A stretch of 45,329 nt of DNA, from NCBI GenBank assembly GCA_045121195.1, contig JBGVFO010000152.1, forward strand, positions 1 through 45,329. Reading direction: 5' to 3'. Each line of letters starts with the position of its first letter. The stretch's first letter is position 1. Shown here piece after piece: positions 27,383 to 31,045 of the stretch. Origin of the DNA: Eubacteriales bacterium. GTDB lineage: Bacteria; Bacillota; Clostridia; Oscillospirales; CAG-272. Below the pieces are notes generated by a model, which saw only the letters and a program-made list of their open reading frames with translations, did no database searches and was not told the origin of the DNA. Both the position numbers and the translations under genes were made by a program.

Positions 27383-28588
27383 ATGGAAAAGATTAAACTT
27401 GGTATTATCGGTCTCGGTAATCAGGGATCGCTTTATACAAAACATTTCTTCGGCAGAAAGTGCCCCGAGATCGAGCTTGCCGCAGTGGCAGATATCGATC
27501 CCACGAGAATTGAAAACGTAAAGAAGCTTTATGTAGAGTTCAAGGAGAAGGACGGGACCCTCGTTGAGCCCGCATACTTTGACGATGCTATCAAGATGAT
27601 GGAATCCGGTCTTATCGACTCGGTAATCGTGGCCGTTCCTCACTACGATCACCCCAAGTATGTGATCGAGGCATTCCGTCACGGTCTTCACGCCATCAGC
27701 GAGAAGCCTGCAGGCGTTTACACCCTTCAGGTTCGCGAGATGATGGAGGAGGCTGATAAGCATCCCGAGCTTGTGTTTGGTATGATGTTCAACCAGAGAA
27801 CCAATCATGTGTTCCGCAAGATGAAGGAGATCATCGAGAGCGGCGAGCTTGGTGCCATCAAGAGAACCAGCTGGATCATCACCAACTGGTACAGACCCCA
27901 GTTCTACTATGATTCCGGCGCATGGCGTGCAACCTGGAGCGGAGAAGGCGGAGGCGTTCTTCTGAACCAGTGTCCCCACAACCTTGACCTTTGGCAGTGG
28001 ATCTGCGGTATGCCCACCAAGATCGAGGCAAAGCTGAAGTTCGGTAAGTGGCACGATATCGAGGTTGAGGACGACGTAACGGTATTTGCCGAGTACGAGA
28101 ACGGCGCAACCGGTACCTTCATTACCACCACCGGTGACGCTCCCGGTACCAACCGCTTTGAGATCACCTGCGACGGCGGTAAGCTGGTTTGCGACGACGC
28201 AAAGACCCTTACTATGTGGAAGCTGGATATGCCCGAGTCCGAGTTCACCAAGGTGAACACCAAGGCGTTCGGCGCCCCCAAGGCAACCGTTGTTGACGTA
28301 GAGACCGACGGTGAGAATCCTCAGCACGTAGGCGTGTTCAATGCCTTCGCGGCAGCCGTTCTCCGTGGCGAGCCTCTGGTTGCAGACGGACGTGAGGGTA
28401 TCTTCGGACTTTCTCTTTCCAACGCAATGCACCTGTCCTGCTGGCAGAACAGAGAAGTAACCCTTCCTCTTTCCGCAGAGGACGAGAAGTCGTTCTACGG
28501 TGAGCTTATGGAGCGCGTAAAGACCTCCAGACGCAAGGAGAACGTAACCTCGGCGGTTGCAGATACCTCTGATACCTTCAATAGCTGA
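27383..28588 (+). CDS. Gfo/Idh/MocA-family NAD(P)-dependent oxidoreductase
   Basis: 401 aa. It has the N-terminal Rossmann motif KLGIIGLGNQG, plus the EKP motif (AISEKPAG) and the C-terminal alpha/beta domain. Confidence 0.9.
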   Translation: MEKIKLGIIGLGNQGSLYTKHFFGRKCPEIELAAVADIDPTRIENVKKLYVEFKEKDGTLVEPAYFDDAIKMMESGLIDSVIVAVPHYDHPKYVIEAFRHGLHAISEKPAGVYTLQVREMMEEADKHPELVFGMMFNQRTNHVFRKMKEIIESGELGAIKRTSWIITNWYRPQFYYDSGAWRATWSGEGGGVLLNQCPHNLDLWQWICGMPTKIEAKLKFGKWHDIEVEDDVTVFAEYENGATGTFITTTGDAPGTNRFEITCDGGKLVCDDAKTLTMWKLDMPESEFTKVNTKAFGAPKATVVDVETDGENPQHVGVFNAFAAAVLRGEPLVADGREGIFGLSLSNAMHLSCWQNREVTLPLSAEDEKSFYGELMERVKTSRRKENVTSAVADTSDTFNS

Positions 28589-28606
28589 TTCTCAAAATAT
28601 TTTCAA

Positions 28607-28633
28607 GGGCGCCCTGCGCGGCGCCCTTTTTTT
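28607..28633 (+). terminator. Rho-independent terminator of the four-gene sugar operon
   Basis: Stem GGGCGCC / GGCGCCC followed by TTTTTTT at 28627-28633. Confidence 0.8.
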
Positions 28634-28721
28634 AGAAAAAAGAAAAAATATTTTTCAAAATCCTATTGACAACCGAGGGGAAAAGTGGTATACTATGCAA
28701 GTACGAAAAAATCGCACACCT

Positions 28722-28798
28722 GCGGCGTTAGCTCAGCTGGATAGAGTGTCTGGCTACGAACCAGAAGGTCAGGGGTTCGAGTCCCTTACGCCGCGCCA
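28722..28798 (+). tRNA. tRNA-Arg (anticodon ACG), CCA encoded
   Basis: I folded the cloverleaf by hand. Acceptor stem is GCGGCGT/ACGCCGC, anticodon stem TCTGG/CCAGA with loop CTACGAA, T-arm AGGGG-TTCGAGT-CCCTT, discriminator G, then CCA. Confidence 0.93.
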
Positions 28799-28816
28799 CA
28801 AAAAGAGCATACCCAA
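28778..28816 (+). repeat. Direct repeat DR1, copy a (tRNA-Arg 3' end plus start of its terminator)
   Basis: CGAGTCCCTTACGCCGCGCCACAaAAAGAGCATACCCAA recurs at 28926-28964 with one mismatch. Confidence 0.9.
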
Positions 28817-28881
28817 AGGGTATGCTCTTTTTGTATTTGATGTGGAAGGGACTCGAAGGGTTCGGTAGTGAATGACCGTCC
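28815..28881 (+). repeat. Direct repeat DR2, copy a (67 nt)
   Basis: AAAGGGTATGCTCTTTTTGTATTTGATGTGGAAGGGACTCGAAGGGTTCGGtAGTGAATGACCGTCC recurs at 30133-30199 with one mismatch (28866 T versus 30184 A). Confidence 0.9.
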
Positions 28882-28925
28882 GGGGGACGGTCAGAGCCGA
28901 ACCCCGACCGAGCCGAAGCGAGACA

Positions 28926-28964
28926 CGAGTCCCTTACGCCGCGCCACAGAAAGAGCATACCCAA
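28926..28964 (+). repeat. Direct repeat DR1, copy b (orphan tRNA-Arg 3'-end fragment, att-like scar)
   Basis: 39 nt, matching 28778-28816 at 38 of 39 positions. There is no 5' half of a tRNA upstream of it. Confidence 0.9.
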
Positions 28965-29150
28965 TGGAACGTACTCTTAAGGACAGTTTTGAGAGTGTTT
29001 ACCTGCTCACAGAAAAACAGAAATCGCAGATTGTTTTTCTGCGGTTTTTGTATTATAATAGGGATAGGGACTAAACTTGATTCATTTGTTAATCAAAAGC
29101 GAAATTTGAATGAATCAGACAAATAAACAAGAATTTGAAAAGGAAAGAAT

Positions 29151-29516
29151 ATGGAACAAAAATATCAGATTGGTAATGAATATGGATCTATAATGTGGGA
29201 CATCGAAAAGCTCCTCAAAGATATTGAAAAGTTTAGAATAAAAGCATTTGATGTTAAGCATCTCGTTCTCAGCAATCCGTTTCACGGAAATGAAGAATAT
29301 GCTATGACTACCGACATTACTCAACCTTTAATTGTTGTCAATCTGACAGAAAATATAGATAAGCTAATTGATGGTAACCATAGGTTGCAAAAGGCATTGA
29401 AACTTGGTGTAGCAACGATCGATGCTTATTATCTGTCGTTTGAAGAACATCGCAACTACATTATTGATTTTCACGAGGATATATATCACCATATAGTAAG
29501 TCATTGGAAAAATTAA
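29151..29516 (+). CDS. Small ParB N-terminal-domain-like (ParB/sulfiredoxin-fold) protein
   Basis: 121 aa in an AT-rich segment. PLIVVNLTENIDKLIDGNHRLQKALKLGVATIDAYYL matches the core DGxHR motif region of ParB-like nuclease domains. Confidence 0.6.
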   Translation: MEQKYQIGNEYGSIMWDIEKLLKDIEKFRIKAFDVKHLVLSNPFHGNEEYAMTTDITQPLIVVNLTENIDKLIDGNHRLQKALKLGVATIDAYYLSFEEHRNYIIDFHEDIYHHIVSHWKN

Positions 29517-29557
29517 ATTCTAATTTGTCGAGAAATAAGGGAACGCTCATAGATAAA

Positions 29558-29608
29558 AGCCTCCCTTATGTAAAGGGAGGTGGCACGCGTAGCGTGACGG
29601 AGGGATTG
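29558..29608 (+). repeat. Left two-hairpin inverted-repeat arm flanking the DUF559 gene
   Basis: AGCCTCCCTTATGTAAAGGGAGGTGGCACGCGTAGCGTGACGGAGGGATTG. The hairpins are CCTCCCTT/AAGGGAGG and CACGC/GCGTG. The reverse complement of 29956-30004 aligns along its whole length. Confidence 0.75.
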
Positions 29609-29610
29609 TA

Positions 29611-29979
29611 ATGCAGAGAAAACACAACAAAAATATCGTACCAACAGCAAAAATGCTGCGAAAGAATATGACGAAAGAAGAAAATTATCTTTGGTATGAT
29701 TTTTTGCGTACCTATCCCGTCCGCTTTTCTCGTCAAAAGGTTCTCGGAAAGTATATAGCGGATTTTTACTGTGCAGAGGCAAAGCTTGTTATTGAGCTTG
29801 ACGGTTCTGGGCATTATACCGGGGAAGGAAAGCAATACGATGAAGAAAGAACAGCTTTTCTTGAAGAATACGGATTGACAGTTATCAGAATACCGAATAC
29901 GGAAATACATAAAAACTTTCGGGGTGTTTGCGAATATATTGATCGCCTCGTAGAACAATCCCTCAGTCTGCTTCGCTGA
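29611..29979 (+). CDS. DUF559 (Vsr/restriction-endonuclease-like fold) protein
   Basis: 122 aa. AKMLRKNMTKEENYLWYDFLR...FSRQKVLGKYIADFYCAEAKLVIELDGSGH...YDEERTAFLEEYGLTVIRIPNTEI is a textbook DUF559 pattern. Confidence 0.85.
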   Translation: MQRKHNKNIVPTAKMLRKNMTKEENYLWYDFLRTYPVRFSRQKVLGKYIADFYCAEAKLVIELDGSGHYTGEGKQYDEERTAFLEEYGLTVIRIPNTEIHKNFRGVCEYIDRLVEQSLSLLR

Positions 29980-30004
29980 CAGCTCCCTTTACACAAGGGA
30001 GCCT
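29956..30004 (+). repeat. Right two-hairpin inverted-repeat arm flanking the DUF559 gene
   Basis: CAATCCCTCAGTCTGCTTCGCTGACAGCTCCCTTTACACAAGGGAGCCT. It contains the DUF559 stop codon (29977-29979). It matches 30461-30506 closely, sharing a 29-nt block with one mismatch. Confidence 0.75.
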
Positions 30005-30132
30005 TTTTTGTTCACCTATAGCTTGTCAATTTTACTGACAAGCACTGCATTTGTGTCCACAAATGCAAAATACGGCATACCTATTTCGAGATATACCGTA
30101 TTTTTGAAAACTGTCCTTTAGAGTGACGCTCT

Positions 30133-30199
30133 AAAGGGTATGCTCTTTTTGTATTTGATGTGGAAGGGACTCGAAGGGTTCGGAAGTGAATGACCGTCC
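30133..30199 (+). repeat. Direct repeat DR2, copy b (67 nt)
   Basis: Matches 28815-28881 at 66 of 67 positions. Confidence 0.9.
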
Positions 30200-30371
30200 T
30201 CCAAAAAAGGCACGCTCATTAGGCTGGTTCTCATAAGGATGTTTTGGGAATATGGTAGGGGCGAACTGTGTTCGCCCGCGGGAGACCGCAGGTCTCCCCT
30301 ACGCATACACATAAATTTTGGCAGAGATGTTGTTTCCTCTGCCGATTTGTGTTATAATGAGGCTAACGAAA

Positions 30372-30506
30372 AGCCTCCCTCCGGGAGGGAGGGGGACCGC
30401 GTTAGCGGTGAAAGGAGCCTGCGCAACTTTAGTTTTGGATAAAACCTATTGTATCGCACTCTCCCTCAGTCAGCTTCGCTGACAGCTCCCTCTCCGGAGG
30501 GAGCCT
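30372..30506 (+). mobile_element. Gene-less (MITE-like) copy of the same inverted-repeat pair
   Basis: A left-arm homologue at 30372-30417 and a right-arm homologue at 30461-30506 are separated by only about 43 nt, with no ORF between them. Confidence 0.6.
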
Positions 30507-30598
30507 ATGAACGCGCTCGCGCATCTTTAGAGGCTTGGGCTTTGCCCTATGTCTTTGTAATACAAAGGCGAAACTGACGATAAAACAAGAGGATACGT

Positions 30599-31045
30599 AT
30601 GGTGTTTTTGAGAAATTTAAAAAAAGAAGATGCATCGGAATTGCGAGAATACGGATATTCGGATTTATCCGCAGAGCAAGTAGAAACTCTTATTTGTGAT
30701 TGGGAAAAAAAGCAGTTCAACGGTAAGTATTTTGAAATGTATGCTATTGTTTCTGATGAAAGAATTGTAGGCACAATTTCGTTATATCAACATTCATCGG
30801 AAGTTGTATCGTTTGGACCGGAGGTCTTTTGCAAGTACCGAAGAAATGGTTTTGCCAAAGAAGCAATGATATGTGCTTGTCAAATAGCAAAAGAAAAGGG
30901 GTTCAAAATAGTTTCACAACAGATTCTAACCAATAATACCGCAAGTATTGCATTACATTGTTCTCTTGGCTTTGAAACAAGCGAACTCATTTTTACAAAT
31001 GCTAAAGGAAATCAAGTATCTATTTATTTGAAATGTTTAGTATAA
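30599..31045 (+). CDS. GNAT-family N-acetyltransferase
   Basis: 148 aa in an AT-rich segment. It has a motif A-like region CKYRRNGFAKEAMICACQIAKEKGF and a motif B region NNTASIALHCSLGFE. Confidence 0.8.
   Translation: MVFLRNLKKEDASELREYGYSDLSAEQVETLICDWEKKQFNGKYFEMYAIVSDERIVGTISLYQHSSEVVSFGPEVFCKYRRNGFAKEAMICACQIAKEKGFKIVSQQILTNNTASIALHCSLGFETSELIFTNAKGNQVSIYLKCLV

Follow-up and report, generated by a model that had tools for sequence, protein, structure and literature searches.

BoxC, PIT elements and TM/TMECO intrastrand-triplex motifs are names for one type of palindromic repeat (Bachellier; Hoyne and Maher 2000; Holder et al. 2015, PMC4666352). TM repeats are dispersed and intergenic, often form inverted pairs that always join two subtypes, and are tied to local rearrangement (PMC4666352). 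The TM study reported no association with a gene class or mobile element and did not mention an endonuclease (PMC4666352), and PIT elements were without promoter or terminator activity in E. coli in those published tests that are cited there. Although these repeats have been known since the 1990s from hundreds of genomes and are tied to genome instability, their origin, partner and function were never established; DUF559 is a very large family of small nucleases without a defined substrate. Here, we describe a DUF559 gene and its flanking repeat arms on contig JBGVFO010000152.1 (assembly GCA_045121195.1), a 45,329-nt stretch of clostridial DNA that is called the window below and whose forward strand is the reference for all coordinates. 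The gene lies in the central loop of an asymmetric palindromic repeat, and the same repeat is far more common without the gene.

DUF559 belongs to the same PD-(D/E)XK clade as the homing endonuclease I-Bth0305I (PMC3424549). The Caulobacter DUF559 protein VsrA damages DNA in cells and elicits the SOS response without cognate methylation (PMC12907096), so members of the family can be active nucleases in cells. No published description of a DUF559 link to triplex-motif repeats was found in the literature searched. Neither the repeat type nor, in general terms, a nuclease gene between palindromic repeats of its own genome is new; the new points are the connection between DUF559 and triplex-motif repeats and a clostridial cargo element in terminator loops. 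An initial annotation of the window had treated the arrangement as a novelty, which holds for the connection with DUF559 and not for the repeat, already described as BoxC, PIT and TM.

Repeat Arms around the DUF559 Gene

Pfam, inverted-repeat and folding results agreed with the initial annotation in that a DUF559 gene lies between inverted arms of about 50 nt, each with two hairpins (Table 1). The open reading frame (ORF) matched the Pfam family DUF559 (PF04480) with 100.4 bits against a curated cutoff of 20.6 (E = 6.9e-29). Also as described there, the left arm stops 2 nt ahead of the ATG, the right arm encodes the final 7 codons and the stop codon of DUF559, and no target-site duplication is found at the arm ends. 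The arms match as inverted repeats over 31 nt (29555-29585 vs. 29977-30007, 87% complementary) and over 14 nt (29596-29609 vs. 29955-29968, 93% complementary). The 45-kb window contains exactly two matches to the outer-hairpin pattern CTCCCTTN5AAGGGAG, the expected number being 0.14, and two matches were reached in 0 of 100 shuffles. As single-stranded DNA, each arm forms two hairpins, with z = −5.6 and −3.6 on the + strand relative to shuffles.

Three blocks follow one another in the left arm, namely the pyrimidine block CCTCCCTT, the purine block AAGGGAGG and the mirror purine block GGAGGGA; the right arm, read as its reverse complement, has CTCCCTT, AAGGGAG and GAGGGA. Loop 1 measures 5 nt; loop 2 measures 18 nt and itself forms a hairpin, this inner hairpin being the linker between the purine block and the mirror block. 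The sequence GAGGGATTG, singled out in the initial annotation as a perfect terminal match, corresponds to the mirror block plus the Shine-Dalgarno (SD) sequence. By this block order, the arms are a clostridial version of the BoxC/PIT/TM "intrastrand triplex" motif.

Related loci came from a scan of species-representative genomes, and the best 80 of 531 relatives were analysed. Their sources were ruminant and other gut metagenome-assembled genomes (MAGs) labelled Clostridia, Oscillospiraceae or Acutalibacteraceae. The association of arms and gene was systematic, as had been anticipated: a strict pattern recovered both arms around the DUF559 ORF in 69 of the 80 loci, and by eye the left arm was missing or degenerate only in L010, L050 and L059 and the right arm interrupted only in L037, L047 and L074. 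In 66 distinct copies, the left-arm helices were 99.4% paired, with four pairs showing compensatory changes, a result that 0 of 500 shuffles equalled. The majority-base frequency was 0.96-0.97 in the left arm and 0.98 in the right arm (74 copies). Overall, the arms were 96-98% conserved, loops included, compared to 83.5% at third codon positions, which is well above what neutrality would predict. The three blocks changed in a coordinated way in L074 (T>C, A>G and A>G); in L021, blocks 1 and 2 had changed and the mirror block had not. Co-variation of the three blocks fits the triplex grammar in one of these two cases.

The outer hairpins score as terminators on both sides, on the strand leaving the cassette. 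The cassette RNA is predicted to form an arm-to-arm panhandle of about 48 bp that hides the SD sequence and the ATG (z = −6.1). A permissive Rfam search of 28400-30800 returned a tRNA match alone.

Gene-Less Doublets and the Dispersed Repeat Family

In gut metagenomes, the repeat family of the arms is 50-250 times more abundant than the DUF559 ORF. Depth in run X8 was 26,000-129,000 over the arm hairpins and 116-862 over the ORF body, with about 330 over the promoter-like piece and about 500 over the right terminal repeat of the larger element described below, and about 10 over host genes. A joint from 29611 to 29954 deletes exactly the 342-nt ORF body and has 12 to about 20 variable nucleotides instead; it was present in four DNA runs and three RNA runs, with differing fillers. 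Presence/absence variation with precise boundaries, as envisaged in the initial annotation, was therefore found for the ORF body and not for the outer arm ends, where no empty site was detected.

The metagenome scan gave at least 120 stretches with gene-less doublets, some of them from human gut samples; no DUF559 gene was present near the doublets in the 80 loci fetched, and a scan of viral contigs for the gene-less doublet gave no matches. The doublets keep a fixed outer hairpin and a fixed GAGGG block; their inner hairpin is free in sequence and always paired. Left and right arm types remain distinct in all copies, gene-less ones included. L043, L055 and L070, which have the ORF form, share their upstream context with L001, L040 and L078, which have the gene-less form, and in L021 the ORF form is followed by sequence usual after gene-less doublets. 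A few ORF-bearing copies with other inner-hairpin types are scattered over the ORF tree.

The window itself contains a second, diverged doublet (Table 1), in which 30462-30491 is 97% identical to 29959-29988. This doublet is polymorphic: a joint from 30358 to 30536, with 21 other nucleotides replacing the doublet, was seen in runs X4 and X8. Elsewhere, comparison with L169 and L167 shows that the gene-less doublet of L189 has its centre in common with one doublet family and its right flank in common with a second one, which suggests recombination between doublets at different loci.

DUF559 Genes and Triplex-Motif Repeats in Other Phyla

No close relatives of the DUF559 protein were found in phage and plasmid records; only matches below 60% identity occurred there and were kept for a distant set, which comprised 15 loci from plasmid/phage records and 69 from viral contigs (26-64% identity). 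For each gene, the 200-nt upstream flank was aligned to the reverse-complemented 200-nt downstream flank. At 21 of 81 distant loci, the gene had flanking inverted repeats with a z value of 8 or more; 20 of these loci had an alignment score of at least 40, versus 0 of 81 mismatched upstream-downstream pairs. Positives were confined to good full-length DUF559 matches and made up about half of these; there were none among weak partial matches. Among them are four Deinococcus species, which represent at least three genomic contexts, together with S. meliloti, a plasmid of the cyanobacterium Pseudanabaena and gut Firmicutes.

Every positive arm has a CCCTCTCCC/GGGAGAGGG-type hairpin, in most cases accompanied by a mirror or third block; 62% had a mirror block with an identity of 85% or more. 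The density of pyrimidine/purine hairpins was 3.45 per kb near gene ends versus 0.47 per kb farther off. Either orientation of the arms to the gene occurs, and the distance from repeat to start codon varies from 0 to 119 nt. The inverted repeat of S. meliloti is 114 nt long; the repeat core has 26 copies in one replicon, and the full arm occurs at the DUF559 gene only. In E. coli, TMECO no. 9 adjoins ycjD, a single-copy gene present in 62% of complete genomes. These comparisons indicate that DUF559 genes of other phyla are flanked by inverted pairs of the triplex-motif repeat of their own genome.

The E. coli interval sapF-ycjD-fabI was considered as an empty site and rejected, as strains without ycjD carry a different island with no precise boundary. 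On the Deinococcus plasmids L084, L086 and L095, DUF559 and its flanking repeats lie inside catabolic gene clusters, in the hpaB/oxidoreductase, oxidoreductase/hpaE and paaD/paaZ gaps. The plasmid copies look like insertions into operon spacers.

The DUF559 Protein

The only solved homologue found by sequence was NGO0050 (PDB 3HRL, E = 1.4e-12), and the match to NCBIfam PRK09767 was below the family cutoff. Residues D51, E62, D64 and H68 were invariant among 12 sequences of 33-52% identity; among 34 close homologues, D51, E62 and D64 were invariant and H68 was at least 90% conserved. An AlphaFold2 (AF2) model was of moderate quality (pLDDT 68.8). Its best fold matches, both at probability 1.00 and with target TM-scores of 0.72-0.75, were 3HRL and 3R3P, the latter being the homing endonuclease I-Bth0305I; the Vsr structure 1CW0 was a weak match. 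According to the model, the protein most probably has a Vsr-type fold. No HUH/Y1 domain or TnpA was found in the ORF, all profile matches being DUF559-related; in PADLOC, DpdF and a methyl-directed restriction enzyme were matched weakly (E about 2e-5).

Selection on the ORF was estimated from 76 intact copies. With dN/dS of 0.047 and a median dS of 0.57, the gene is old and strongly constrained. More than 8000 close homologues were found (83-95% identity), most of their contigs measuring 0.5-1.5 kb, as is typical of a repeat that breaks assemblies. Copies with 89-96% identity occur across many species, and several may be present per MAG; for example, L029, L053, L054 and L060 share one genome. 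An 806-nt contig covering 28815-29620 was identical in the independent public runs X1 and X2, so the arrangement is not an assembly artefact.

At L059 (3990-4003), the ORF and right arm are kept and the entire left arm, including the SD sequence, is gone. The ATG follows directly after the stop codon of the upstream NUDIX gene, which suggests translational coupling. As annotated, the DUF559 ORFs of L089, L090 and L083 extend into the flanking repeats and gain repeat-encoded Pro/Ser/Gly-rich tails, an example being LSPSPQPSP in E. coli strain KE47; the ends of DUF559-family proteins are thus often repeat-derived.

A Larger Element in Terminator Loops

The cassette is contained in a larger element (Table 1), of which 48 complete homologues were found. 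Across loci, the element is bounded by ACYCTWAAGGACAGTTTT and AAAACTGTCCTTWAGRGT and measures 726-1833 nt between the terminal-repeat motifs. DUF559 is the only gene constant across all elements. The cargo found elsewhere includes an S-adenosylmethionine (SAM) methyltransferase, NUDIX, GNAT, DUF4932, peptidase S51, a kinase, a helix-turn-helix (HTH) protein and many small membrane proteins; the cargo position is empty in L056 and L080. No known transposase was recognised among the genes of the larger elements. The promoter-like piece is 83-93% conserved in most of the 80 loci despite the differing gene behind it; we infer from the sequence that 28998-29062 may be a promoter, and a simple consensus scan gave no call there.

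The outer flanks of the elements were complementary over at least 8 nt exactly in 35 of 48 cases versus 11 of 48 controls, and over at least 10 nt in 32 of 48 versus 3 of 48. An A-run was present at the left in 47 of the 48 elements and a T-run at the right in all 48. These locus-specific complementary flanks, together with the A-run and T-run, place the element in the loop of an intrinsic terminator. One methyltransferase cargo was found in four different terminators, which means that the element has moved and that the stems are the host's. In the window, the position of the element follows from the intact paralogous terminator, which gives a joint between 28962 and 30133 that is ambiguous by 2 nt; the element is thereby placed at 28963-30132, and any target-site duplication is limited to 2 nt. 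A direct repeat of 67 nt (28815-28881 and 30133-30199) is 99% identical.

The tRNA-Arg(acg) 3′ end, its terminator and 47 nt downstream occur twice in the window, intact at 28778-28881 and interrupted by the element at 28926-28967 plus 30133-30199, with a 44-nt spacer (28882-28925) between the two tRNA-end copies. L004 has the same layout past its tRNA-Arg(acg), with NUDIX as the cargo. tRNA genes as a general target were rejected, since only the window, L004 and L026 adjoin a tRNA. In runs X1 and X2, a joint between 28962 and 30133 was considered as excision and is read instead as the intact first terminator copy of the same genome. A reading as an integron cassette with attC was set aside because a given cargo is found with differing outer stems and no integrase was seen. 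The tail at 30010-30106 is highly conserved in sequence, with two pairs showing compensatory change; a structured RNA is not claimed there, the covariation being weak (term 0.02).

Cargo depth equalled host depth in runs X1 and X2 and was zero in X4 and X8, so strains differ at the element locus. The segment 29070-31073 is strain-variable, with zero depth in X4 and the flanking host genes covered in all these runs; in X8, the cargo part 29070-29403 had zero depth and the GNAT part was present. A search for strain-level empty sites through the flanking host genes yielded none, the upstream gene being unrecorded and the downstream gene giving only known contigs.

Several neighbouring features were also noted. 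Within 30320-31045, a low-GC GNAT acetyltransferase gene (30599-31045) comes after a promoter-like box, TTGTGTTATAAT, and the gene-less doublet. This promoter-plus-doublet module is also present in L185, L200, L209, L215 and L246, and a homologue of the window GNAT gene is element cargo in L070. A separate GC-rich palindromic repeat family, GGTAGGGGCGAACTGTGTTCGCCCGCGGGAGACCGCAGGTCTCCCCTACG, is found at 30254-30311, with 92-95% matches in L023 and L024. A nested module resembling a miniature inverted-repeat transposable element (MITE) was seen at about 640-960 of L001 and also in L018, L040, L078, L021, L032, L051 and L077. Its ends are TTAATTAAAGACA and TGTCTTTAATTAA-like, its insertion point is AAGCACTG, within the tail of the larger element, and it holds a promoter-like TTGACA box, a small hairpin (ACCTTCCGGGAGGTA) and a gene-less or ORF-bearing doublet.

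Table 1. Positions of the DUF559 gene, its arms and the surrounding element in the window.
Feature	Position	Strand	Basis or remark
Left arm	29555-29608	+	Inverted-repeat match and folding
Left-arm outer hairpin (CCTCCCTT / AAGGGAGG)	29560-29580	+	
Left-arm inner hairpin	29584-29596	+	
Left-arm mirror purine block GGAGGGA	29599-29605	+	Contains Shine-Dalgarno GGAGG, 7 nt before ATG
DUF559/YcjD-type Vsr-fold nuclease gene (fold predicted), 122 aa	29611-29979	+	Pfam PF04480 match
Right arm	29955-30009	+	Inverted-repeat match and folding
CAATCCCTC	29956-29964	+	Complements mirror block, acts as anti-SD
Right-arm inner hairpin	29966-29980	+	
Right-arm outer hairpin and T-run, intrinsic terminator	29982-30002	+	
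Second, gene-less doublet, diverged, about 45 nt between arms	30370-30510	+	Upstream of GNAT gene
Larger element, 1170 nt, contains cassette	28963-30132	+	Terminal inverted repeats; in AAA loop of tRNA-Arg terminator copy
Terminal repeats ACTCTTAAGGACAGTTTT and AAAACTGTCCTTTAGAGT	28973-28990 and 30107-30124	+	Inverted repeats
5′ half of interrupted terminator stem (AAAGAGCATACCC)	28950-28962	+	Preceded by second tRNA-Arg 3′ end copy, 28926-28948
3′ half of interrupted terminator stem (GGGTATGCTCTTT)	30136-30148	+	Followed by T-run and 50-nt repeat of tRNA-downstream sequence
Promoter-like piece ending in TGTATTATAAT, read as extended −10	28998-29062	+	Conservation between loci
Variable cargo gene, 121 aa, DGNHR motif	29151-29516	+	Without family match
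Conserved hairpin-rich tail	30010-30106	+	Between right arm and right terminal repeat
Intact tRNA-Arg(acg) terminator	28798-28834	+	Paralogous empty site for larger element

Proposed Mechanism and Alternatives

The best explanation, to which we assign a probability of about 0.45, is that the DUF559 nuclease acts on triplex-motif repeats in a REP/RAYT-like or homing-like manner. DUF559 would then be a sequence- and structure-specific nicking endonuclease, with the folded arm motif as its substrate in the form of hairpin or triplex DNA. A nick followed by host repair could place a copy of the gene in a gene-less doublet, with homology provided by the 50-nt arms, as in homing. Nicking may also drive recombination, cargo exchange and the spread of the repeat, in parallel to REP/RAYT with a different enzyme. 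The arms would in addition serve expression: the left arm would give the SD sequence, the right arm the stop codon and terminator, and pairing of the arms in the mRNA could hide the SD sequence and ATG. A wider proposal, less probable than not, is that DUF559/YcjD proteins are partner enzymes of BoxC/PIT/TM repeats across bacteria, as a second REP/RAYT-like system, and in gut Clostridia the engine of a new class of small mobile elements with cargo that home to terminator loops.

Several points weigh against an action of DUF559 on the repeats. That the protein cuts or binds the arms is what we infer, and not a biochemical or genetic result. A PD-(D/E)XK nuclease cuts and cannot join, so spread must use host repair or an additional partner. 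Frequent homing is not evident, given that the ORF-flanking arms are one near-invariant subtype and the gene-less inner hairpins are diverse. L059 retains the DUF559 gene without a left arm, and the high conservation of the arms could stem from concerted evolution instead of selection. In the other phyla, about half of the good distant DUF559 loci have no flanking inverted repeat. The E. coli ycjD gene has a repeat on one side only and is missing from 38% of genomes, and ten listed genomes that lack it still give extra matches to a repeat-containing query. The enrichment of hairpins near gene ends is partly an intergenic-versus-coding effect. Metatranscriptome coverage was rejected as proof of transcription, as its profile mirrors the DNA profile.

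The arms could instead be expression or insulation devices for a possibly toxic nuclease, with no enzymatic tie to DUF559 and with a repeat-family look that arises from the commonness of generic terminator-like or REP-like hairpins in these genomes. We regard this as unlikely. Such a role would account for the outward terminators on both sides of the cassette and for the SD sequence in the left arm with its complement in the right, whose RNA fold conceals the SD sequence and ATG (z = −6.1), and it suits a protein family with a Caulobacter member that is harmful when its target is unprotected (PMC12907096). It leaves unexplained, however, why DUF559 genes of unrelated phyla lie between inverted pairs of the respective genome's triplex-type repeat, at varying distances and in either orientation, why loops and mirror block are conserved at the sequence level, and why the three-block grammar recurs in gene-less doublets; PIT elements, moreover, were without promoter or terminator activity in the E. 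coli tests that PMC4666352 cites. It is likewise improbable, in our view, that DUF559 is a cargo or host-useful gene, active in Vsr-like mismatch repair or as a defence nuclease, that an unlinked transposase or recombinase mobilises in trans, the repeats being gene-trapping recombination hot spots and flanking DUF559 for that reason. The lack of a known transposase in the element, the link of TM repeats to local rearrangement (PMC4666352), the weak PADLOC matches given above and the apparent age of the elements (dS 0.57), one site being common to L004 under other cargo, all agree with this account. Yet DUF559 is the sole constant gene while cargo varies or is absent (L056, L080), and the depth of the ORF roughly equals that of the terminal repeat and the promoter piece. 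A dN/dS of 0.05 on several copies per genome is hard to square with host benefit, and a trap predicts many gene families between repeats, not one across phyla.

The initial annotation had proposed that arms and gene form one selfish cassette that moves by single-stranded transposition with the arm hairpins as IS200/IS605-like ends. Arms and ORF have indeed stayed together over a large synonymous divergence, and the sequence after the cassette occasionally differs (L014/L022, L064/L068, L021 and L071). We nevertheless consider this account very improbable. The recurrent mobile unit is the widespread larger element, which has terminal repeats of its own, ends elsewhere (28963 and 30132) and targets a terminator loop. 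Only the ORF body is polymorphic, no empty site having been found at the outer ends of the arms, and the arms are members of the repeat family that far outnumbers the ORF. The likeness to single-strand transposition fails on the enzyme as well, since the ORF has no HUH or Y1 domain and a PD-(D/E)XK nuclease cannot do HUH chemistry. It is also general knowledge that the ends of IS200/IS605 elements are not inverted repeats of each other.

A specific link between DUF559 and triplex-motif repeats would give both the protein family and the repeats a concrete, testable hypothesis. The clostridial element is compact and abundant in ruminant gut metagenomes, and related gene-less doublets occur in the human gut as well. 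It bears on gene flow among gut bacteria, breaks metagenome assemblies and may offer a hairpin-targeted insertion system.

Comparison with Known Systems

The arms share with BoxC/PIT/TM repeats the order of pyrimidine, purine and mirror purine block, the dispersed, multi-copy and intergenic distribution, the inverted pairing of two subtypes (A and B there, left and right here) and the link to local rearrangement. They differ in that loop 2 is an 18-nt hairpin here and 1-6 nt in the ITxF definition, so that ITxF-type searches would miss these arms. Their blocks are also shorter (7-8 nt) and richer in A/T.

The likeness to REP-type elements drawn in the initial annotation was judged apt. As in REP/REPIN-RAYT systems, a nuclease gene lies between inverted copies of the genome's own dispersed palindromic repeat, the gene-less inverted doublets with their short spacer recall REPINs, and Sinorhizobium has about one gene copy against dozens of repeats. 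The enzyme, however, is a PD-(D/E)XK nuclease with a predicted Vsr fold here and an HUH/Y1 (IS200-like) transposase there, and the repeat follows a triplex-type grammar in place of a GTAG/CGTC-tagged hairpin. Unlike the single-copy, vertically inherited RAYT, DUF559 of the window lineage is multi-copy, crosses species and is built into a cargo-carrying element.

Among homing endonucleases of the I-Bth0305I type (EDxHD), 3R3P was the best model match (TM-score 0.72 on the target). As with homing endonuclease genes, homologous flanks occur with or without the ORF between them, and the site is precise. In contrast to I-Bth0305I, the gene is free-standing in a repeat and not in a group I intron, and the catalytic domain is all that is shared. 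YcjD of E. coli, NGO0050 of N. gonorrhoeae and VsrA of Caulobacter are in the same Pfam family, DUF559; VsrA differs in its proposed target, T/G mismatches at a methylation motif and not repeats.

Elements that target hairpins are known and include IS1397/ISKpn1 in REP loops, class C group II introns at terminators and IS200/IS605. Compared with IS200/IS605, there is no TnpA here, and the arms are inverted repeats of one another, unlike the ends of those elements. The larger element resembles hairpin-targeting elements in its location in hairpin loops, those of intrinsic terminators, with a duplication of at most 2 nt. It differs from them in having no DDE, HUH or reverse-transcriptase gene, in having DUF559 as its sole constant gene, and in carrying a promoter-like piece with exchangeable cargo.

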